21,125 nt of DNA from a virus (taxonomy: Duplodnaviria; Heunggongvirae; Uroviricota; Caudoviricetes). Where the stretch lies: positions 1-21,125 of IMG/VR virus record IMGVR_UViG_2526164601_000021, one strand, 5' to 3'. This document shows positions 951 to 13,135 of the stretch, one piece after another. How positions within the stretch are numbered: position 1 is the first letter of the stretch; each line of letters begins with the position of its first letter. The notes under the pieces are model-generated. The model saw only the letters and a program-made list of their open reading frames with translations. It was not told the DNA's origin and did no database searches. A program made the translations under genes and the position numbers.

Positions 951-1718
951 TCACCCCATAGATATCGAGGTTTCGGTAATAATACGTTTTGCGTCCAACT
1001 CCCATGCTGTGATCACGTCTGCAATCACACTTATCGGCGCTTGTGTGGCATAAATACGCTCTTCTCCAATTGGTGCTGAAACATCCGTAAAGCCGACTTC
1101 TTTGGCATCCTGTATCGAGCAAATCAGCGGGACCGGGACACGAACAAGGTGAGTGGTTGCTTCAAATTGTGTACCTGTCATCAGGCGAAGCCGTGCGCCC
1201 AGCGAATTACACATCAGACTCATGGTCGCTTTATCAGTTGCCATTAACGTAACGTCATACGTCAGAATGGCCTGGGTGTATTCCAGTTCTGCTAAAGGCG
1301 TTCCGGTATCTGGTTCGCAAAAACAGGCTACTTTTTTGCGGTCAATCTGCTGATCATCGTTGATATAATTGATATCCATAGTGCGTGAGATATTGACCAG
1401 GGGGAGAGCATCCCGGTTAATGTTCTGGTTTTCAGGTTTTCTCCCTTGCCCGGCATTTGCGCGACGAACTGCTTTAAGAAACTCGATCGCATTGTCGAAA
1501 CGGGCCATATAGACACGCTCTGCTGGTGGACGATTCAGGAATGACGCAAAGCGTTTTTCTTCCGGCGCGGGGGCCACCAGTAAGATATCAGAAAAAATGT
1601 TGCTGATTAGCGTCGCAAACGCGTTATCCACGTTTTCAAAGCCCGTGGTCTGGAATTTTCCTGTGCGTAAGGTTTGCCATTCACCGGTTCGCGCCAGGAG
1701 GGTTTTATTTGAAGTCAT
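951..1718 (-). CDS. Hypothetical protein (255 aa), function unknown
   Basis: ORF track; start overlaps the stop of the upstream ORF (ATGA at 1715-1718); no nucleotide-binding or catalytic motif recognised. Confidence 0.5.
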   Translation of the reverse strand: MTSNKTLLARTGEWQTLRTGKFQTTGFENVDNAFATLISNIFSDILLVAPAPEEKRFASFLNRPPAERVYMARFDNAIEFLKAVRRANAGQGRKPENQNINRDALPLVNISRTMDINYINDDQQIDRKKVACFCEPDTGTPLAELEYTQAILTYDVTLMATDKATMSLMCNSLGARLRLMTGTQFEATTHLVRVPVPLICSIQDAKEVGFTDVSAPIGEERIYATQAPISVIADVITAWELDAKRIITETSISMG

Positions 1719-2518
1719 TCGATCACTCCGTTTTGAGTCGTATCAAAATTCCTGGCAGGTATGCAGTAGTAAAGCGAACCAACATGCTGTGTGCCGTAGC
1801 TAAAAATACGGTGCACGTACCACCAGCGGCGGGCTACGCCGTTTACCATCTCTTCATTCCATTCAAGAATTGAGCCGACGGGGACGTTATTTGCTGCAAT
1901 ACGCAGAATCAGAACATCATCGGTTAAGCCATCCTGCTCACCGTCTGCGTCAATTGCATGGAAAGAGTCACGCCCGTCAGGGTTATCCAGCACATAAACA
2001 ATTTCAGGTTCCTGATAGGTCAGTTCACGCTGGTTGTTATCCAGTTCAGTGAATGACTCTTCTCCTGTTTCGTCGCTGACTACCCCAAATGTGCCAACAT
2101 CAGGTCGATATAAGAGAGCCTGAAACGCATCTGGGCTGGATTCAATAATCAGCATCCAGTCTGCGCGGATTTGGTCGTTAAAGGCTTTATGCCCGTTATA
2201 GCGTGCTTTTAACTGTGGAGTCGGTTCTCTGCCAGCCAGGGAAGATGGAAGTATGGCTATATCTGATTCGCCAGCATCCGGAGTAAGGCCACCGTTGCTA
2301 TCAGCAAAATTATCATGGCTATCAGCTTTGGCGGCGGGTTGCTCTTCCAGAATGCTGAATGAATCCGAACCGGTATTGCCATGTTCCGGCGCGCCTCCTG
2401 CATTCGCTTCAATCGGCGCTGGCGTTTCTCTCTGCGTGCTGTCATGTTCTGACTCCTTACTTGCCAGGTTTGCATCGTCAGCAAACCATTCGTCAAAACG
2501 GCCCATAAGCATCCTCAA
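1715..2518 (-). CDS. Hypothetical protein (267 aa) with a strongly acidic, low-complexity N-terminal half and an aromatic-rich C-terminal domain
   Basis: ORF track; N-terminal 150 aa rich in D/E/S/G/A; first gene of a three-gene leftward operon; divergent from the higBA promoter region. Confidence 0.5.
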   Translation of the reverse strand: MRMLMGRFDEWFADDANLASKESEHDSTQRETPAPIEANAGGAPEHGNTGSDSFSILEEQPAAKADSHDNFADSNGGLTPDAGESDIAILPSSLAGREPTPQLKARYNGHKAFNDQIRADWMLIIESSPDAFQALLYRPDVGTFGVVSDETGEESFTELDNNQRELTYQEPEIVYVLDNPDGRDSFHAIDADGEQDGLTDDVLILRIAANNVPVGSILEWNEEMVNGVARRWWYVHRIFSYGTQHVGSLYYCIPARNFDTTQNGVIE

Positions 2519-2668: not shown

Positions 2669-2971
2669 ATGACCAAAAAAATTAACATAAAGGATTTCAG
2701 GGATGCGTGGCTTGATGATTTTTTTGAATTTTCAACACCACATAGAAAGATACCTCCTGATATTCATATGACATTGTCACGGAAGTTGGACATTATCAAT
2801 GCCGCAACTACCTGTAAGGATTTAAGATCACCACCAGGTAATCGGTATGAGGAACTGTCAGGGAAGCTAAATGGCTATTCATCAGTAAGGGTGAATAAGC
2901 AATATAGGTTAATTTTTAAGTGGGTTAACGGAAAGGCCGAGGACTTGTATCTCGACCCTCACAAATACTAA
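2669..2971 (+). CDS. higB: Type II toxin, HigB family (plasmid-killer / RelE-ParE superfamily)
   Basis: 100 aa; N-terminal FRDAWLDDFFE and C-terminal RVNKQYRLIFKWVNGKAEDLYLDPHKY match hallmark HigB motifs; immediately followed by a HigA-type HTH antitoxin gene. Confidence 0.85.
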   Translation: MTKKINIKDFRDAWLDDFFEFSTPHRKIPPDIHMTLSRKLDIINAATTCKDLRSPPGNRYEELSGKLNGYSSVRVNKQYRLIFKWVNGKAEDLYLDPHKY

Positions 2972-3041
2972 AACAGATACCCGGTTACGGACCGGGTTCT
3001 GACCAGAGTCCACTTAATACGCACGCTAGTAAGGGCAAAAA

Positions 3042-3380
3042 ATGAAACAGGCAACCAGAAAACCGACGACCGTAGGTGATATCCTGCTGTACGAATACCT
3101 GGAGCCGTTAGAGCTGAAGATCAACGAGTTGGCAGAAATACTTCATGTTCATCGTAACACCGTAAGTGCTCTTGTTAATAATAATCGTAAGCTAACGATG
3201 GATATGGCATATCGCCTGGCAAAAGCATTCGATACTTCTGTAGATTTTTGGATTAATCTTCAGACCGCAGTAGACCTGTGGGAAGTCGAAAATGATATGC
3301 GCGTTCAGGAAGAGTTAAGTCGTATCAATACTGCTGAAAAATTTATTTCTCAGCGGAACCTGAATAAAAAAGCAGCCTGA
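3042..3380 (+). CDS. higA: Type II antitoxin, HigA family (XRE-type HTH)
   Basis: 112 aa; TVGDILLYEYLEPLELKINELAEILHVHRNTVSALVNNNRKLTMDMAYRLAKAF..FWINLQ matches the HigA/VapI HTH pattern; downstream of higB. Confidence 0.85.
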   Translation: MKQATRKPTTVGDILLYEYLEPLELKINELAEILHVHRNTVSALVNNNRKLTMDMAYRLAKAFDTSVDFWINLQTAVDLWEVENDMRVQEELSRINTAEKFISQRNLNKKAA

Positions 3381-3401
3381 TATAGTAAAACACATACAAA
3401 A

Positions 3402-3430
3402 AGCCCACTTAGCAAGTGGGCTTTCCTTTG
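3402..3430 (+). terminator. Rho-independent terminator after higA
   Basis: 9 bp stem AGCCCACTT / AAGTGGGCT with a 3 nt loop, followed by a T-rich tract. Confidence 0.6.
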
Positions 3431-3436
3431 TAATTA

Positions 3437-3796
3437 ATGAACATTAAACCTATCCGTACAGAACAAGATTATGAGGCCGCACTGCGTGCGGTCGAACCGA
3501 TGTTCGATAATGAACCGGAAATGAACACACCGGAAGGCGATTTCTTTGAGGTTATGTGTCTTCTCATTGAGGAGTACGAGAAAAAACATTACCCAATTGA
3601 GCCACCATCACCTATTGAGGCCATTAAATTCCGTATGGAACAGCAAGGACTGACCGTGAAGGATCTGGAACCGGCAATTGGTAAGTCAAACCGTGTTTAC
3701 GAAGTGCTTAATGGGACACGAAATTTGACGTTACCTATGATTCGTCGTTTACATGCCCAGTTTGGTATTCCACTGGAAAGTCTGATTGGTGTTTAA
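3437..3796 (+). CDS. HTH (XRE-like) DNA-binding protein with N-terminal extension; antitoxin-like regulator lacking an obvious partner toxin
   Basis: 119 aa; C-terminal GKSNRVYEVLNGTRNLTLPMIRRLHAQFGIPLESLI is HTH-like; architecture resembles HigA-like antitoxins of other TA families. Weak RBS. Confidence 0.55.
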   Translation: MNIKPIRTEQDYEAALRAVEPMFDNEPEMNTPEGDFFEVMCLLIEEYEKKHYPIEPPSPIEAIKFRMEQQGLTVKDLEPAIGKSNRVYEVLNGTRNLTLPMIRRLHAQFGIPLESLIGV

Positions 3797-3858
3797 GTTT
3801 TGCGGTCTGGATGACCGCTGTTTTTATAAAAATAGATACTAGAAATTTGGTAGCATAT

Positions 3859-4440
3859 ATGAGTACAGATTCATCAATAAAGAAGGCAGCCGAATCAGAT
3901 AAAGAAAATGGGGGGGCCATTGATGCCGCCAAGGATGTAATGGAATATGTTATAAAGGATAAATTGTTTAATAAAGTATTTGCATATATTTTTATCTCGT
4001 TTTTAGTTGTTAATTGGCGAGATATATTAATACTAATTAAATCAAAAGAAGATATTCTTTATACACTATCAATAGTATTTGTTGGTGGCAAATTACCGTT
4101 TCTTGGTGGTGTTGTTTTATCACCGTGGGTTGCTCACTTTTTCTTGCCGTTTGTTTATGGCGTGATTGCGTCAATTGTGGCGCCAATAGTTACTCTAGCT
4201 GTATCTTACGTTACAACCAACATATATCATGAAATAAAATTTTTAGATGAAAATGCCTATGAAAATCAACTTAAAAAACAAGCAAAGAAAGCCAAAGAAA
4301 GAATTGATATTGAAATGAATGGTAAGTATAGCCAAAAAGTATTAGACGAAAGAAAAAAAGACCTGGAAGATATTGATAATGCGATTAAAAATAAACAAAT
4401 TAACTTTGATAAAAAAGAAAAGAGTTTGCTGATAATATAA
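3859..4440 (+). CDS. Predicted membrane protein (two TM helices) with Lys/Glu-rich coiled-coil tail; frame may continue to about 4636 after a shift in an A6 run at 4411-4416
   Basis: ORF track frame 3811..4440 (start moved to first ATG); hydrophobic stretches VFAYIFISFLVVNW and LPFLGGVVLSPWVAHFFLPFVYGVIASIVAPIVTLAVSYV; AT-rich relative to neighbours; a start-less open frame follows from about 4413 to 4636. Confidence 0.5.
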   Translation: MSTDSSIKKAAESDKENGGAIDAAKDVMEYVIKDKLFNKVFAYIFISFLVVNWRDILILIKSKEDILYTLSIVFVGGKLPFLGGVVLSPWVAHFFLPFVYGVIASIVAPIVTLAVSYVTTNIYHEIKFLDENAYENQLKKQAKKAKERIDIEMNGKYSQKVLDERKKDLEDIDNAIKNKQINFDKKEKSLLII

Positions 4441-4638: not shown

Positions 4639-4661
4639 AGCCTGGCATAAACCACCAGGCT
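4639..4661 (-). terminator. Hairpin terminator (7 bp stem AGCCTGG / CCAGGCT) at the 3' end of the leftward 4673..5866 gene; T-rich on the minus strand
   Basis: Inverted repeat read from sequence, followed on the minus strand by TTCATTTTTC. Confidence 0.45.
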
Positions 4662-4672
4662 ATATGTGTGGT

Positions 4673-5866
4673 TTATGCTTTTTTTACATACTCCATGAAC
4701 ATTTTTTTAGCTTGTGCTGGTGGTGTTCCAGCCATGACAAGCGCATCAATGAACGCCTGCTTCTTCAGTGCGAACTGATCGGCCAGGCGTTGCTGAAGCT
4801 CCTTGTTTTTCTGTTTCTCACGTTGCAACGCCGCTTCTTTTGCTGCCGCCCGTTTTTTCTGTGCGTCTGACAACTTTCTGGCCTTGGTCAGTTGGTCACG
4901 TAGCTTGTCAATCTTGCCGTTGTCCTTTGCCAGTTTTGTGCTTAAAGCGGCCTGGCGCTTCTGATAGAGCCTCCATTCTCGCTTGGCAGCGTCAACGTTC
5001 GTTTTACTGCTACGATTGCGATTAAACTCCTTCTCGTCTTCTTTTGAGAAGTGTTTGGTTGTACGGCGGCGATCGTCACCAAATGCAATTTGCGTTGCAG
5101 CCTTTTGTAGCGCACGAGCAATACTCATTTGCCAACTGGCGGACTGTAACCGCGTCATTGAGTGGATCACGTGTTTACAGGCGACGCCTTGCAGCTTCGG
5201 GTTGCGAACTTTTGGATAGGCGTATTCTTTTGGCGGTGCCAGGGCAAAGTTACCCGCAGTGGCGATGTAACGATACCAGTATTGATGACGACCACAGTCA
5301 CAATCGAAAGACACTCGCCCGGCGCACAGTGATTTAGTGATTTTGAGAGCTGATTTATCGTCTTCTGCGATGTCATCAACCATCTGATCCCATTCTTCAA
5401 AGCGTATCCGGACGATATGGTGCTGGTGGACGGATATATCCGATGCTTCTACGCGGATATTAATCACATTGTGGCGAAGAGATACGGGTGTAGCTCTTTT
5501 GATACCAGACCCGTCATCCACGGCGTTATTTGCACGCTTAATATCGATAGCCTGGCTGGATGCCACCAGCTGGGCGTATGTGATGCCAGCCGTCTTGCTG
5601 TCATATTTTTCGCGCGTTTTACTCCGTAGCTTTTCGAAGCCTTTCAGATCGTCTCGCGTAAAGAACGTGCCGCCTTTTTTCTTCCCTAACTTGAGAATAT
5701 CTTCGGCGGATTTGTTCCTAAGTCTGCCTGGCGTCAGCGTCCGGTGAGCTTGTCGGCGCTTACGGGTTTGTTCTTTCCTGATAAGGTCGAATAAACGCGT
5801 GAAGTCCTTAGAGGACAGACCGTCAGTGATATAGCGCCCGTCCTGGTTTTTCAGGAAATCAGGCAT
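4673..5866 (-). CDS. Hypothetical protein (397 aa) with a CxC...CxH (SWIM-like) cysteine motif and a basic Lys/Arg/Ala/Gln-rich coiled-coil C-terminus
   Basis: ORF track; motif FDCDCGRH...VACKHV; GGAGA RBS upstream; start overlaps the stop of an upstream small ORF. No family recognised. Confidence 0.55.
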   Translation of the reverse strand: MPDFLKNQDGRYITDGLSSKDFTRLFDLIRKEQTRKRRQAHRTLTPGRLRNKSAEDILKLGKKKGGTFFTRDDLKGFEKLRSKTREKYDSKTAGITYAQLVASSQAIDIKRANNAVDDGSGIKRATPVSLRHNVINIRVEASDISVHQHHIVRIRFEEWDQMVDDIAEDDKSALKITKSLCAGRVSFDCDCGRHQYWYRYIATAGNFALAPPKEYAYPKVRNPKLQGVACKHVIHSMTRLQSASWQMSIARALQKAATQIAFGDDRRRTTKHFSKEDEKEFNRNRSSKTNVDAAKREWRLYQKRQAALSTKLAKDNGKIDKLRDQLTKARKLSDAQKKRAAAKEAALQREKQKNKELQQRLADQFALKKQAFIDALVMAGTPPAQAKKMFMEYVKKA

Positions 5867-6187
5867 TTTCTATCTCCGGTTCCGCGCTCGCGTAATCACG
5901 GATCTTGTTCCTCAGCCATGCTACATCAGGAAGAGTTAACGTGGTCCCGGCGGGCATTTCTTCCATTTCTGACTCATGGCCCACCAGCACCCGGAATACC
6001 CAGCGCAAATCTGCATTGCCATACGCCCTGTAGGCTGCAAGGTCTGAACGATATACTTCATCAATCTTTATCGTGTACTGGAAATTATCAGAGTGATACT
6101 CGATACCCGCTTAATCATTTCCTGGTGAAACAGCGCACGAAAAATATCGTCTTCAATATACCTATCGTCGAGTCTGCTATAGCCCAT
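5859..6187 (-). CDS. Small hypothetical protein; apparent frameshift near a CCC/GGG run (about 6106-6108); either two short ORFs or one disrupted gene of about 110 codons
   Basis: Manual translation: MGYSRLDDRYIEDDIFRALFHQEMIKR.. then a second frame ..EYHSDNFQYTIKIDEVYRSDLAAYRAYGNADLRWVFRVLVGHESEMEEMPAGTTLTLPDVAWLRNKIRDYASAEPEIENA whose stop overlaps the downstream start. Confidence 0.3.
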
Positions 6188-6380: not shown

Positions 6381-6515
6381 ATGGATGTTATCTTCGAATT
6401 ATTAATGCTAATTGATCTGTTTATGAACGCTTCATTGTCCACTCAAATACTGGCGTCAATATTTTTGTTACTCTTCTACCTGGTATTGAGGGAGTTAACA
6501 AAGCTACTAATGTGA
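6381..6515 (+). CDS. Small hydrophobic peptide (44 aa, single predicted TM helix)
   Basis: MDVIFELLMLIDLFMNASLSTQILASIFLLLFYLVLRELTKLLM; GGAG about 8 nt upstream of the ATG; stop abuts the end of the convergent 6516..6761 ORF. Confidence 0.3.
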   Translation: MDVIFELLMLIDLFMNASLSTQILASIFLLLFYLVLRELTKLLM

Positions 6516-6761
6516 TCAAAGTATCACGGTATCTTCATCAACTTCTTTCCCAGCCAGTGACTTTGGCTGGGAGGTGCCTGCTTTAACTTTTTCATGCCCA
6601 ATAATGGAAAGGAACGAAGCGAGTATGCCTGTTTTTTGCTCTTTCTCGACTGTACCGGTTATCTGCTCTACGTAATCCGCACTGGCAACGTTGTGGTATA
6701 CGGTCGCGTAGCAACACAGGATCATCAGAATATGCTCCGGCCTGATATCCTGCCAGTTCAC
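6516..6761 (-). CDS. Hypothetical small protein (81 aa, GTG start); frame stays open upstream into the end of the preceding ORF
   Basis: ORF track; GGAG-like sequence upstream of the GTG; no family recognised. Confidence 0.4.
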   Translation of the reverse strand: MNWQDIRPEHILMILCCYATVYHNVASADYVEQITGTVEKEQKTGILASFLSIIGHEKVKAGTSQPKSLAGKEVDEDTVIL

Positions 6762-6834
6762 CCTGTAGACTTCTTCTCCGTTACCGTTGTATTCGGTATC
6801 AACGATAGAGTCGGGGATTTCGAAAGCACCTTTG

Positions 6835-7170
6835 TTATTTTGCGGCAGGGATAATAGTTTCTGGTAGTTTTAACTCTCTGTATCTTTCCATCCCAACGAT
6901 GATTGCTGCTCTACCATCGGCATGACGGGTCTTGAGAGTCACCTGGCTTGCTCCGGTGCCAGCGGAGATCGTTGGCGTAATTTCGTCTACTAGAACCTTA
7001 AATTTGCTTTTCCGCAGGGCTGCTATAGCTGGAGGAATTTTTTGCTTTTGCTCCAATGCTGACGCAGGAAGGGGTTTTACTTCGTTAATAATGAGAGCAC
7101 CGTCTTTCAGTATTGCAGTGAGCATTTGAGGCTTGCTGGTGGTCAGGCTGAATATTGCGATCTTTTCCAT
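6835..7170 (-). CDS. Hypothetical small protein (111 aa); C-terminal segment weakly reminiscent of Phd/YefM-type antitoxin fold
   Basis: ORF track; strong RBS (GGAGG) upstream; segment VTLKTRHADGRAAIIVGMERYRELK resembles the Phd/YefM N-domain pattern (weak, unverified). Confidence 0.45.
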   Translation of the reverse strand: MEKIAIFSLTTSKPQMLTAILKDGALIINEVKPLPASALEQKQKIPPAIAALRKSKFKVLVDEITPTISAGTGASQVTLKTRHADGRAAIIVGMERYRELKLPETIIPAAK

Positions 7171-7221: not shown

Positions 7222-7531
7222 TGCTTTGGCGTTATGACTCCCTACCGCGCTTCGGCTGAAAGTTAATCGTCAAAAGAACCTTCAACGGGAGCCGTTAGCG
7301 CGATGGATTATGTGCATTTTGTGATTTCCAAAATAGTGTCAACCACTTTTTGTGGTATTTTATTTTGACCGAAATTTGGCCTAAATCATGTTGATTTGGC
7401 TGATTATTTTTATAACATAAAAGTCATTTTGATTGCATGAAGGTCTGTGCAGTGAAGTTAAGGGTTTTAGGGACCGCGCTCGCGGCTAAGATGGTAAAGT
7501 ATGGAGTTAATGAAATGTTTTTTATAAAAAA

Positions 7532-9215: not shown

Positions 9216-9512
9216 TTAACTAACAATCCAGTCCGTAGCAACAACATCCTCTGGAGCTAAATCAATCGCATGGATTTTCCCATCCCGGATGGTGCGCCAG
9301 TGCTTTCGTGATCCACCTTCGGGCCATACCCATACACCTTCAGGCCAGGATGCTCGACGGCATACGATTGCATACCCTGTTTTAATCCTCTCTCTCGCGG
9401 TATGCAACGACAGGTTTGCCTTTGGACTTTCAGGTACAGGATGGTGAATGGCCTGAAACAGCCCCATTTTGGGGTGATACCAGCGTTTATTACGTGGTTC
9501 TGCCTCCGACAT
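9216..9512 (-). CDS. Hypothetical protein (about 98 aa; track ORF 9216..9578, start moved to the ATG giving MSEAEPRNKRW..)
   Basis: ORF track frame; Trp-rich C-terminal region (GYAIVCRRASWPEGVWVWPEGG); start chosen to minimise overlap with the Rha ORF. Confidence 0.4.
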   Translation of the reverse strand: MSEAEPRNKRWYHPKMGLFQAIHHPVPESPKANLSLHTARERIKTGYAIVCRRASWPEGVWVWPEGGSRKHWRTIRDGKIHAIDLAPEDVVATDWIVS

Positions 9513-9519
9513 CACCTGC

Positions 9520-10158
9520 TTAAAGGCTTTCCGGAAGGGGGGCCAGGGCCACAATGGAGCGTCGCGCAAGCAAACCATCTGGAGTTAAAAACTCATGCGT
9601 ATCGGTGGGAATCCGGAAAGCGTTGACCAGGTTGCGACATTTGGCTTCAGTCAGGCCACATTTCGCCGCCAGCTGGCGGTAGCCAATGTAGCCTTCCGGA
9701 ATATTGCCTTTCTTGATTTGCTCGACGGTTTCAGCGACTTCGGACACTTGTGCCGATACTTCGGCTACCTGGGCATTAACGGCGTTGATCCGGCGTTCAT
9801 GCTCAAGATGCATTTGCGCCATTTCAGCCAGGATTTCGGCTTTTGATTTTAACTGTACCCGGGCATTCTCCAGTTCGCGCCAGCGGTCCACCAGCCGGGC
9901 GGTAAATTCGGGAGAAAGCTGTGCGACGACAATGATACTGTCACGCTTGCCTTGTTCGCCTTCAAAGATGTAAGCCTTGGAAAATCGACGAGGGCCAACT
10001 GATTGTTTATTTTCAATTTCCTCAATTTGAGGAAATTGAATGACACCACCTTTAGTTAATACTTCAATGGTACGCTTCACATTATCATGACGCTTACCTA
10101 CCAGTTCCGCGATCTCAATACTGGTCATTGTCGCTTTTTGAGAGATGGACAGATTCAT
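9520..10158 (-). CDS. Phage regulatory protein, Rha family (antirepressor-like)
   Basis: 212 aa; N-terminal TSIEIAELVGKRHDNVKRTIEVLTKGGVIQFPQIEE matches the Rha-domain pattern; coiled-coil middle region; start overlaps the stop of the upstream ORF. Confidence 0.75.
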   Translation of the reverse strand: MNLSISQKATMTSIEIAELVGKRHDNVKRTIEVLTKGGVIQFPQIEEIENKQSVGPRRFSKAYIFEGEQGKRDSIIVVAQLSPEFTARLVDRWRELENARVQLKSKAEILAEMAQMHLEHERRINAVNAQVAEVSAQVSEVAETVEQIKKGNIPEGYIGYRQLAAKCGLTEAKCRNLVNAFRIPTDTHEFLTPDGLLARRSIVALAPLPESL

Positions 10159-12034: not shown

Positions 12035-12393
12035 TGGTGAAACGTGTTTTGAAAATTTACATCGCGGGGCCGATGACTGGTTATCCAGATTACAACCGTG
12101 CGGCGTTTAATGCGAAAGCGATCGAGCTGATGGCTGAAGGGCATATCGTTCTGAATCCAGCGGTGTTACCTGGTGGCCTTTGCCAGAGTGAATACATGGA
12201 TATTTGCCTGGCAATGGTGCGTTCTGCTGATGCGATCTATTTGCTCAATCGATGGGAAGAATCGGTTGGTGCTCGTGCAGAGCACGCGCTGGCTGAAAAG
12301 CTGGGGCTGACTGTAATTTATGAGTCACCAACCAACATTGAATGCCAGGTTGCTCCACATATTTTACCGGGAACTGGTCAATGCACTGCGTGA
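12034..12393 (+). CDS. DUF4406 family protein (nucleoside 2-deoxyribosyltransferase-like fold)
   Basis: Track ORF 12007..12393 trimmed to the ATG; KIYIAGPMTGYPDYNRAAFNAKAIELMAEGHIVLNP..WEESVGARAEHALAEKLGL matches the DUF4406 pattern. Confidence 0.75.
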   Translation: MVKRVLKIYIAGPMTGYPDYNRAAFNAKAIELMAEGHIVLNPAVLPGGLCQSEYMDICLAMVRSADAIYLLNRWEESVGARAEHALAEKLGLTVIYESPTNIECQVAPHILPGTGQCTA

Positions 12394-12647
12394 CTATCGC
12401 TGCTGTATATCACGGCACAGAACAGCTTCGTGAGCGTTTAGCCCATACCATTTCCTATTACCTTTCTTTATCTCATGAGCACAAGCTCCGCCAGAAGGTA
12501 ATGATCAAATTTATCATGAGGTTATCGAAATCCCTGGCAAACGCCGATCCAAAGAATCCATTACCGAAAGAGGCAATGAATTACCTGAAGTCCTGCAACG
12601 TTGTTTCTGAAGATGGCGTTCTTTTGGTTAGAAGGAGTTCTGCGTGA
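12381..12647 (+). CDS. Hypothetical protein (about 88 aa)
   Basis: Track ORF 12342..12647; likely start ATG 12381 or GTG 12390 overlapping the preceding stop (GTGA). Confidence 0.4.
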   Translation: MHCVTIAAVYHGTEQLRERLAHTISYYLSLSHEHKLRQKVMIKFIMRLSKSLANADPKNPLPKEAMNYLKSCNVVSEDGVLLVRRSSA

Positions 12648-12961
12648 GCTGGCGGGGATGGGGAAGGGCAGAAATCATGATACTCCGCCAGTGCGCCGGA
12701 ACTATGACGGTCGAGAGTATTGGGAAGCTGATCGGTCGTACCGGTGATGCCGTCAGGACTAAAGCGCGGGAGTTGGGGATCAGCATGATTCTGAAAGGAG
12801 ACTTTCATCCGTCAGACAAATACCGGCAGAGCGATATAGAACTGGCACGGCAGCTTCATCAGTGTGGTGTTCCCCGCCGTGAGATCGCGGAAAAACTCGA
12901 AATGCCCCTGGGCATGATTAATCAGTACGTTTATTTCGAAAGGAGAGTGTATGAAGTCTGA
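12644..12961 (+). CDS. Small DNA-binding protein with two HTH-like segments
   Basis: ORF track (GTG start overlapping the previous stop); segments SIGKLIGRTGDAVRTKARELGIS and DIELARQLHQCGVPRREIAEKLEMPLGMINQYV look like sigma-70 region-4 / LuxR-type HTH. Confidence 0.5.
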   Translation: MSWRGWGRAEIMILRQCAGTMTVESIGKLIGRTGDAVRTKARELGISMILKGDFHPSDKYRQSDIELARQLHQCGVPRREIAEKLEMPLGMINQYVYFERRVYEV

Positions 12962-13135
12962 AGGTTTAACGACCCGCACAACTGGCAGAGCGTAACGCTG
13001 AGTATGTACGGAAATTTCCCGACTTGAGAAAGCGTGTGCTGCGCTAGCGGCGGAGAATGCTGGGCTGAAACATGCAATGGCTGTAACTCTGAGCATGTGT
13101 CGGTCACGGATGCAGGGCAGGCCGGAGTTGCCGCA

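Follow-up and report, generated by a model that had tools for sequence, protein, structure and literature searches.

The locus examined here raises the question of whether a small leftward gene and the larger gene that it overlaps, which encodes a basic protein with a Cys/His cluster, constitute an accessory module of a phage or belong to the machinery by which the virion is built. Both genes lie in a stretch of 21,125 nucleotides of viral DNA (IMG/VR record IMGVR_UViG_2526164601_000021), referred to below as the window. The initial annotation, prepared from the letters of the sequence, described the larger gene as a leftward ORF of 397 codons, which is indeed present with the sequence given for it, and recognized neither protein, regarding the pair as accessory rather than core phage machinery.

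The window shares 97.5% nucleotide identity with phage D6, and by this likeness it is a D6-like phage-plasmid (plasmid prophage) of E. coli. The annotation of D6 carries the wording "similar to P1 gene 25 / gene 26", and the P1 record gives the order LP26-26-25-7-24-6-5, labelling 26 as 'baseplate' and both 25 and 7 as 'tail stability'. Homology and gene order identify the two ORFs as the opening pair of a late morphogenesis operon of the P1 type, 26-25-7-24-6-5, so that both proteins can be named from known relatives. As a genome feature the locus is ordinary, being a near-identical copy of two annotated late genes already known from D6 and P1. The interest lies in the product of gene 25 (gp25), and the reading that we hold with good confidence is a joint one, comprising P1-type genes 26 and 25, a SWIM-like finger in gp25, and a late role of gp25 at the tail end or neck. 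The features concerned are listed in Table 1.

Table 1. Coordinates of the features of the gene 26-25 region within the window.
Feature	Position	Strand	Basis or description
Gene 25, orthologue of P1 gene 25 ('tail stability') and D6 orf74	4673-5866	-	phrog_1722; identity to D6 and P1
Conserved globular core of gp25, residues 88-290, predicted three-stranded beta-sheet and helices with SWIM-like zinc-finger signature	4997-5605	-	
Cys189-Asp-Cys191, CxC half of the putative zinc site	5294-5302	-	translation CDC
Cys230-Lys-His232, CxH half of the putative zinc site	5171-5179	-	translation CKH
K/R/A/Q-rich 88-residue helix, residues 291-378, probable coiled coil	4733-4996	-	predicted model
Gene 26, orthologue of P1 gene 26 and D6 orf75; pseudogene as sequenced	5859-6187	-	phrog_1269; 9ay5_S
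Frameshifting 1-bp deletion, GG to G on the coding strand	6100-6101	-	alignments with D6 and contig L005
8-nt overlap ATGCCTGA, ATG of gene 25 and TGA of gene 26, putative translational coupling	5859-5866	-	
Intrinsic-terminator-like hairpin after gene 25	4639-4661	-	9-bp stem, 5-nt loop, T-rich tail
Gene 7 homologue (head-tail 'stopper')	1715-2518	-	phrog_1906, E 3.9e-116; PDB 9ums_B, P1 Gp7, E 8.9e-43
Gene 24 homologue	951-1718		downstream of gene 25

The 397-aa product of gene 25 (45 kDa, net charge +38, pI 10.1) matches phrog_1722 over residues 2-396 with an E value of 5.6e-197. It is 99% identical to D6 orf74, 100% identical to the gene 25 protein of viral contig L005, and 57% identical to P1 gp25 over residues 1-334, the part covered by tblastn. 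A word-indexed search retrieved 299 homologues, and a profile search reached 587 cluster representatives at E<=1e-3, the family being tested as phrog_1722 and phrog_4315. No match was obtained for the protein in Pfam (to E<=1), NCBIfam or PADLOC scans, and no fused domains came to light when the ten longest members of the family were scanned against Pfam. Sequence and profile searches of PDB chains with gp25 returned only a chance pectin-lyase match and coiled coils; HHpred had given nothing above 50% for P1 gp25 in 2022. Within the block, gp26, gp7 and gp24 have PDB chains, and gp25 is the sole protein without a solved structure.

The small ORF is split into two pieces, at 6068-6187 (39 aa) and 5859-6008 (49 aa), the second of which, the C-terminal one, matches phrog_1269 (E 2.9e-14). 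At about 6100/6101, D6 reads GGGTATCGGAGTATC and the window reads GGGTATC-GAGTATC, with one base missing; when that base is put back, an intact gp26 protein of 109 aa is obtained. The interruption had been placed at a CCC/GGG run, with the interval 6100-6115 proposed for resequencing. The frameshift is real in the sequence as deposited and falls inside that interval, but the lost base belongs to a GG located 5 nt downstream of the GGG run. The intact D6 protein, also of 109 aa, matches phrog_1269 (E 2.3e-36) and, over residues 4-99, the P1 Gp26 chain 9ay5_S (E 1e-16). On this homology, the gene 26 product is identified as a small T4 gp53-like 'plug' that would hold the six wedges of the baseplate to its central hub, in line with the model of P1 gp26, a six-fold plug that sits between hub and wedge (PMC12810830; bioRxiv 10.1101/2025.07.21.665459).

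The interruption of gene 26 could itself be biological, reflecting either programmed frameshifting or a decaying, defective prophage, and the splitting of several neighboring genes by 1-bp indels could mark such a degenerating element: the mat homologue is affected at 6865, the Ant homologue at about 9540, and an ORF of 209 aa at 3918 and 4416. The deletion was, however, found in none of 179 related plasmid records (76 E. coli complete-genome plasmids and 103 PLSDB plasmids), where the best match at the site was 98.8% with one gap in 82, and in none of 80 viral contigs, among them the 99.3%-identical L005. Being absent from all of these records and thus confined to the window, it is not a conserved recoding site, and programmed frameshifting was dropped on this ground. 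In 76 viral loci the small ORF is intact and its end adjoins the gene 25 homologue, and the remaining four of the 80 have a gp26-like ORF farther upstream. Furthermore, the window carries eight private single-base indels in 7.5 kb against only 45 substitutions, a ratio that looks like read or assembly error, and the protein encoded by gene 25 is unchanged relative to L005. Since the deletion is private and is accompanied by further private 1-bp indels nearby, a sequencing error is likely; the frameshift is most likely an error of the sequence, or otherwise a very recent inactivating mutation, and a genuinely interrupted gene 26 appears quite improbable.

With regard to architecture, gp25 is predicted to comprise N-terminal helices, a compact core and a long C-terminal coiled coil. 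The basic N-terminal region and the coiled-coil tail described by the initial annotation both find support, the former in a pI of 11.6 for residues 20-70 and the latter in the predicted C-terminal helix, which, in the most favorable heptad register, has hydrophobic residues at 17 of its 26 a/d positions and is poorly conserved in sequence.

The Cys/His cluster of the core has withstood comparison with homologues, the check on which its significance had been made to depend. There are only four cysteines in the protein (C181, C189, C191 and C230), and C189, C191, C230, K231 and H232 show no variation across an alignment of 47 homologues at 22-46% identity, in which the mean column identity is 21%. 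The same Cys/His residues are invariant among 25 close homologues, and the CxC half is retained in phages Rb1 and ABMM1. This conservation is far beyond chance and, as judged from the alignments, makes the CxC...CxH cluster a genuine zinc-finger-like hallmark of the whole gene 25 family. The ligand pattern C189-x-C191-x38-C230-x-H232 conforms to CxCxnCxH, and CKH opens a predicted helix (231-239). The putative ligands are flanked by near-invariant basic or aromatic residues (R193, W197, R199, Y200, K219 and K231), and the 38-residue spacer between the two halves contains a helix together with the loop that is best conserved in the family (E214, P218, K219, N222 and G227).

Comparison of the predicted gp25 model with known folds pointed tentatively to SWIM domains. 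The Pfam SWIM model PF04434 gave no match to gp25 of the window at E<=1, and scans of 25 homologues at E<=10 returned coiled-coil noise, with a non-significant SWIM match (E 3.5) in two of the 25. The spacer of a canonical SWIM finger is about 6-25 residues in length. One zinc ion is most likely coordinated by the CxC...CKH residues, in a SWIM-like finger whose insert is unusually long and highly conserved. No relevant report of a SWIM finger in a phage tail or virion emerged from the literature searched.

The junction between the two genes and the region downstream of them bear directly on the proposal of an accessory module. The overlap of the gene 25 start with the stop of the small ORF, noted initially, amounts to 8 nt and is shared by D6-like loci; in more distant loci the genes overlap by 1 nt or stand as much as 26 nt apart. 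The terminator attributed to the pair is likewise present, as a hairpin with a T-tract that begins 12 nt past the stop codon of gene 25 (dG -13.8 kcal/mol; z -2.57 against shuffled sequences). An opposite-strand island of 2.1 kb, as in D6, separates gene 25 from gene 7, and the true accessory genes of this region lie within it, at 2669-4440. In P1, by contrast, gene 7 starts 3 nt after gene 25, with neither terminator break nor island. The terminator can therefore be attributed to the insertion of the island between genes 25 and 7 in D6-like elements. A search upstream of gene 26 for the P1 C1-operator gave no match within three mismatches.

Beyond P1 and D6, the block mat-26-25-7-24 is shared by the majority of about 160 related loci, which range from Enterobacteria to Desulfovibrio and Vibrio, and by part of the 82 distant ones. 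All 80 D6/P1-like viral loci have a gp26-like ORF upstream of gene 25. In the 82 distant genomic loci, the gp26-like family occupies position -1 in 54 of the 57 where it was detected; position +1 is held by the gp7-like family (25 of 29) or, in other loci, by what is probably a divergent stopper (35 of 37). The gp24-like family is most often at +2 and the mat-like family most often at -2. The Acinetobacter/Pseudomonas group keeps 26-25, followed by the probable divergent stopper, and in L060-L062 a gene of 253 aa is inserted between 26 and 25. In the case of ABMM1, BLASTP gave no link between the D6 gp26-like protein and a 92-aa protein, or between the gp7-like protein and a 182-aa protein, and these were therefore compared by PHROG/HMM and hhalign. 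Across locus pairs, the gp25-like gene is more conserved than its gp26-, gp7-, gp24-, mat- and capsid-like neighbors in 69-96% of cases, and among the neighbors only the terminase-like gene is more conserved; the same unusual conservation has been noted for phages GYRb1 and ABMM1 (PMC13478112). Assignment of the gene to a head module, as its position near capsid genes in ABMM1 and Rb1 could suggest, was rejected on two grounds: in these phages the sheath gene and other tail genes lie interspersed in that region, and the gene at +1 probably encodes a divergent stopper. Phage-plasmids and prophages of many Proteobacteria and Desulfovibrionaceae carry gp25 as part of a fixed 26-25-7-24 block.

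These results leave very little room for an accessory two-gene module, that is, a small partner together with a nucleic-acid-binding regulator or effector such as an MvaT-like nucleoid-associated protein. What had pointed in this direction was the terminator, now explained by the island, and a basic protein with a zinc-finger-like motif; additionally, P1 gene 25 was scored as non-essential by CRISPRi (PMC10695390), and the record of Xanthomonas phage Rb1 names its homologue 'transcriptional regulator MvaT', a misleading label for a member of the P1 gp25 family. Nevertheless, the two genes have a fixed place within a late structural operon, LP26-26-25-7-24-6-5, in P1 and in most of the related loci, and distantly related phages and prophages carry the block as well. 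Their conservation ranks among the highest in the group, which is the reverse of what a variable moron would show. Nor was the variable presence that marks morons observed, the 26-25 pair occurring in all 80 close loci. The partner gp26 is a baseplate component of solved structure, P1 gp25 has been seen in purified virions, where carry-over is possible (PMC9024508), and gene 25 is defined by conditional-lethal morphogenesis mutants (class label of the P1 record; PMC10695390). Neither protein matched PADLOC, Pfam or NCBIfam. The initial annotation had itself named strong homology to known phage proteins as counting against its accessory claim, and both proteins are strongly homologous to known phage morphogenetic proteins. 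As copies of P1 late genes, 26 and 25 are, by homology, core virus-building genes, and we regard the accessory reading as highly improbable.

It is then to be asked what gp25 contributes to virion assembly. The 'tail stability' mutant class of P1 gene 25 is shared with 7 (stopper) and 24 (terminator), and 26 is placed in the 'baseplate' class; cryo-EM of P1 has assigned gp26 as the plug, gp7 as the stopper and gp24 as the terminator (PMC12810830). In P1 virions, gp25 was detected by two peptides, a signal like that of the 3-6-copy proteins gp7, gp6 and PmgG, which could be carry-over, as the authors flagged (PMC9024508). CRISPRi against P1 gene 25, asterisked in that study as a previously known mutant, lowered plating only about 10-fold (0.11) (PMC10695390). 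The protein is absent from all PDB chains and from symmetrised P1 cryo-EM assignments. On these grounds, gp25 may be a low-copy or transient morphogenetic factor that acts late, in tail completion or head-tail joining. Its zinc-finger surface would serve for docking to a conserved partner, which could be the DNA end or a protein of the neck or tail end, and its coiled coil would provide for oligomerisation. The protein may be flexible or asymmetric in the virion, or may leave after assembly, and either behavior would account for its absence from the near-complete P1 cryo-EM models.

A baseplate function is the first alternative to be weighed. Here, gp25 would act on gp26 as a chaperone or labile partner and bring this plug to the junction of hub and wedge; it would be kept at a fixed ratio to gp26 by translational coupling and would afterwards be released or disordered. 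The 8-nt overlap in the window and in D6-like loci fits this idea, as do the constancy of the upstream gp26-like gene in close and distant loci, the survival of the pair where gene order differs (for example, in Acinetobacter phage ABMM1), and the near-equal plating efficiencies of P1 under CRISPRi of 25 and 26, at 0.11 and 0.12, respectively (PMC10695390). On the other hand, gene 25 is linked equally tightly to gene 7, so that synteny does not discriminate between a neck and a baseplate role, and the loci with the inserted 253-aa gene tolerate a separation of 26 from 25. To our knowledge, LysM-type plugs of contractile systems, such as T4 gp53, generally have no gp25-like neighbor, which argues against a general need for such a partner. 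The mutant classes also differ, and the placement of 25 under 'tail stability' rather than 'baseplate' implies that tails evidently form without gp25. We consider the baseplate role unlikely, albeit with some standing.

The late tail-completion role must also be set against one centered on DNA. In this alternative, gp25 would be a zinc-finger DNA-binding virion protein, situated asymmetrically either inside the portal, neck or tail channel or at the end of the packaged DNA, and would serve as a gatekeeper, end protector or pilot that locks the filled head to the tail and exits with the DNA. Its charge and pI agree with this, and so do the near-invariant basic and aromatic residues around the zinc ligands. 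Additionally, gp25 is conserved above capsid-like, sheath-size and neck proteins, which is unusual for a purely structural phage protein; it appears at the 3-6-copy level in virion mass spectrometry, yet its density is unassigned in symmetrised maps, and it shares a phenotype class with the stopper gp7. A DNA-binding role would jointly explain the extreme conservation, the charge of +38, the virion signal and the absence from cryo-EM, and, if true, would represent a new virion-borne use of a SWIM-like finger in P1-supergroup phages. SWIM domains, however, can also make protein-protein contacts, a basic coiled coil is by itself poorly predictive, and the searches with gp25 gave no similarity to known DNA-end-binding or ejection proteins. 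The probability that we assign to this role is low.

The preferred reading, a late factor at the tail end or neck, concerns a protein of P1 beside which few other morphogenetic proteins remain unplaced, and which two recent near-complete virion cryo-EM models omit. Handles for placing it are provided by the SWIM-like finger with its 38-residue insert, the high conservation and the fixed gene block.

In comparison with known systems, gp25 shares the operon, the gene block and the 'tail stability' label with P1 gp7 (PDB 9ums) and gp24 (tail terminator, PDB 8jan), which differ from it in being resolved as hexameric rings and have no sequence or fold similarity to it. The putative finger has the ligand pattern of the SWIM finger (PF04434; solved example ZSWIM8, PDB 9rwz), with a longer spacer. 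The gene 26 product corresponds to P1 gp26 and to T4 gp53, the LysM-like wedge-hub connector (PDB 9ay5, 9vzk), by homology and by its position at the head of the operon; it has 109 aa, against 125 aa in P1, owing to a shorter N-terminus, and the copy in the window is frameshifted. The closest counterparts of gp25 are P1 gp25 and D6 orf74. Although the C-terminal third of the window protein aligns poorly with P1 gp25, the likeness to both extends to full-length homology, length class and the place right after gene 26, and with P1 gp25 it includes the CxC...CKH signature and the myosin-like coiled-coil tail, the latter noted in the P1 record.

With Escherichia phage D6, a plasmid prophage related to P1, the region shares 97.5% identity, and it also matches 283 enterobacterial plasmids. 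In D6, the large gene is annotated as 'tail protein, similar to P1 gene 25' and the small gene, an intact 109-aa ORF, as 'baseplate wedge subunit, similar to P1 gene 26'. The large product matches phrog_1722 (E 5.6e-197) and is 57% identical to P1 gp25, while the repaired small protein matches phrog_1269 (E 2e-36) and the solved P1 chain 'Gp26' (9ay5_S; also 9vzk; E 1e-16). The initial annotation had described this unit accurately, as the 397-aa ORF, the 8-nt overlap ATGCCTGA placing its ATG on the TGA of the upstream frame, the Cys/His cluster FDCDCGRH...VACKHV (holding three of only four cysteines), the strong basicity (net charge +38, pI 10.1), a predicted 88-residue helix with a heptad pattern (residues 291-378) and the downstream hairpin were all found. 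At 6398-6427 (-), between the mat and gene 26 homologues and upstream of the latter, TTCATA-18-AATAAT weakly resembles a sigma-70 promoter.

Coordinates of the features in the window and in related loci
Feature	Position	Strand	Remarks
HigB-like toxin	2669-2971	+	
HTH antitoxin	3042-3380	+	
119-aa HTH protein	3437-3796	+	first 119 positions of PADLOC PD-Lambda-2_B, E 4.7e-43
209-aa putative membrane protein	3811-4440	+	weak '2TM effector' match
Hairpin and T-tract 3' of gp25-like stop	4661-4639	-	9-bp stem, dG -13.8 kcal/mol, z -2.6
gp25-like ORF	4673-5866	-	397 aa
Small ORF, second piece	5859-6008	-	49 aa
Small ORF, upstream piece	6068-6187	-	39 aa
mat homologue, piece 2	6516-6761	-	81 aa, profile 137-211 of phrog_1837
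mat homologue, piece 1	6835-7170	-	111 aa, profile 2-106 of phrog_1837
gp25-like gene, Xanthomonas phage Rb1 (PQ569993.1)	L003 6800-7879		annotated 'transcriptional regulator MvaT'
gp25-like gene, Acinetobacter phage vB_AbaM_ABMM1	L004 4579-5709		
phrog_4597 members	L004 5699-6247; L003 7884-8387		also 37 genomic loci

The small ORF had been reported as interrupted at a CCC/GGG run; its frame is indeed broken, and alignment with D6 shifts the position. At about 6100/6101 the window is one base short (D6 GGGTATCGGAGTATC, window GGGTATC-GAGTATC), the deleted base belonging to a GG dinucleotide that lies 5 nt away from the GGG run. This deletion was found in 0 of 76 complete-genome E. coli plasmids and 0 of 103 PLSDB plasmids, and the gene 26 homologue is intact in all 76 viral contigs where its end adjoins the gene 25 homologue, including L005, a related locus with 99.3% identity to the window and the same gp25-like protein sequence. 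Against L005, eight single-base indels within 7.5 kb are private to the window, beside only 45 substitutions. The homologue of mat (P1 maturation control; 6516-7170 (-), against the 212-position profile phrog_1837) is split by a private +1 T insertion at 6865 (GGAG to GGTAG), which D6 and L005 lack; the 209-aa ORF contains two private indels (3918 and 4416); the Ant/anti-repressor homologue (9216-10158, -) is divided into 212-aa and 120-aa ORFs by a G5 to G6 change at about 9537-9542; and further private single-base indels relative to D6/L005 lie at 7356-7424, 10807, 10817 and 12362-13089. Since such indels are so numerous beside so few substitutions, the pattern points to sequence error rather than biology, and a decaying element, to which the same broken frames might be attributed, is less likely. 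Recoding was also considered as the cause of the gene 26 frameshift, and the private-indel pattern does not point there.

The two genes had been taken for an accessory module rather than core phage machinery, a view that their neighbourhood contradicts. In the P1 record, genes 26 and 25 head the late operon LP26-26-25-7-24-6-5. A gp26-like ORF lies upstream on the same strand in all 80 related D6/P1-like viral contigs, adjacent in 77. When neighbouring ORFs were clustered into families at 82 distant genomic loci (Desulfovibrio, Bilophila, Vibrio, Halomonas, Acinetobacter, Pseudomonas, Paraburkholderia and others), the gp26-like family (HMM E 4e-36 to D6 gp26) occupied position -1 in 54 of the 57 loci with detection, the mat-like family -2 in 18/23, the gp7-like family (E 5e-58) +1 in 25/29, and the gp24-like family (E 1e-60) mostly +2 (9/16). 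A 175-aa family, phrog_4597, takes +1 in 35/37 loci and is mutually exclusive with the gp7-like family; hhalign relates the two (47-59% probability, E 1e-5 to 2e-4), so its members are probably stoppers that have diverged. In 69-96% of shared locus pairs, conservation is higher for the gp25-like family than for its gp26-, gp7-, gp24-, mat- and capsid-like neighbours, only a terminase-like family exceeding it, and phages GYRb1 and ABMM1 resemble each other most closely in the gp25-like gene (PMC13478112). Neither the gp25-like nor the gp26-like protein matches the defence library. The 26-25 unit is thus a core gene pair, and a regulator or accessory role for gp25 is essentially excluded.

Members of the gp25 family, with the P1-like block around them, occur well outside Enterobacteria (82 genomic loci, L163-L242), Desulfovibrionaceae and Marinobacterium being listed beside the genera named. 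A few MAGs are labelled Muribaculaceae, Mycoplasmatales or Bacillales, which may be binning errors. Because these loci often lie on contigs of about 80-95 kb, many uncharacterised P1-supergroup phage-plasmids are suggested. In the Acinetobacter/Pseudomonas/Xanthomonas subgroup, a phrog_4597 member ('fam2', 167-182 aa) always comes directly 3' of the gp25-like gene. In three IMG/VR contigs (L060-L062: 3300031370_000004, 3300026487_000009 and 3300011916_000001), a 253-aa gene (VDSKPNTTHTHAELNDIARRWLL...; 5253-6014) sits as an insertion between the homologues of genes 26 and 25, so the two need not be adjacent.

C189, C191, C230 and H232 are invariant across 25 homologues with identity down to 45%. 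Searching 1.84 billion representatives with a profile returned 587 clusters, 346 at E<=1e-10; among 47 members at 22-46% identity, invariance is confined to M1, G94, C189, C191, E214, P218, N222, G227, C230, K231 and H232, with R193, W197, R199, Y200 and K219 near-invariant. The 38-residue spacer between CxC and CxH holds the most conserved loop of the family. The AlphaFold2 model is usable (pLDDT 79, pTM 0.70; core residues 88-290 alone, 82.7 and 0.83) and places CxC at a strand end and CKH at a helix start, and several top matches among predicted viral structures are phage 'SWIM-type domain-containing' proteins. The Pfam SWIM model gave no significant match to the gp25-like protein or to 25 homologues, and none of ten sampled clusters has SWIM in its public name. 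The motif is therefore termed SWIM-like, as the signature fits and the modelled fold appears to agree, yet Pfam does not recognise it.

The Rb1 'MvaT' protein belongs to the P1 gp25 family (phrog_4315 E 5e-68, phrog_1722 E 7e-36) and bears the signature CDCERH...GVACKHV; the name looks like an over-reach from the basic coiled-coil tail.

The identity, conservation, architecture and context of the 26-25 pair follow directly from these comparisons; the roles of its products are inferred. Cryo-EM assigned gp26 to a six-fold 'plug' fastening wedges to hub, gp7 to the head-side stopper and gp24 to the tail terminator, and gp25 is missing from both models (PMC12810830; bioRxiv 10.1101/2025.07.21.665459). 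As controls, the window gp26-, gp7- and gp24-like proteins each matched their own P1 chain among PDB chains; the gp25-like protein and its profile found no P1 chain there. Purified virions yielded two gp25 peptides, with a signal level with that of 3-6-copy proteins, and 'HHpred was unable to identify a role' (PMC9024508). When P1 genes 25 and 26 were knocked down by CRISPRi, plating fell about 10-fold (PMC10695390). The gp26 homologue would form the plug between wedge and hub, as in P1. The protein gp25 is most simply read as a low-copy or transient factor in which the putative zinc-stabilised finger would provide a docking surface and the coiled coil an oligomerisation element. Action specifically at tail completion or head-tail joining is proposed tentatively, on the basis of the class label that gp25 shares with gp7 and gp24 but not with gp26 (25 and 7 'tail stability', 24 'baseplate or tail stability' in the P1 record), the virion signal and the absence of gp25 from the symmetric P1 maps. 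A baseplate role for gp25 as partner or chaperone of gp26, which the fixed pairing would suit, is unlikely, gp26 being labelled 'baseplate', unlike gp25. Less probable still is that gp25 binds DNA while occupying the neck or tail channel, a reading that would suit the basic charge and overlaps the tail-completion one.

In P1, O26 overlaps the gene 26 promoters, whereas the whole window contains no match to the P1 C1-operator ATTGCTCTAATAAATTT at up to three mismatches. P1 also lacks, at this position, the island of opposite-strand accessory genes (2669-4440, +) that D6-like elements carry between genes 25 and 7, which explains the local terminator after gene 25. The 119-aa HTH protein resembles the N-terminus of PD-Lambda-2 component B, and the last two island genes may form a small defence or abortive-infection module. 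Genes 26 and 25 are not new, having been annotated before in both D6 and P1, and the new points are modest: the family-defining SWIM-like finger of gp25, its unusually strong conservation, the broad 26-25-7-24 synteny, and the demonstration that the gene 26 frameshift is private to the window sequence.
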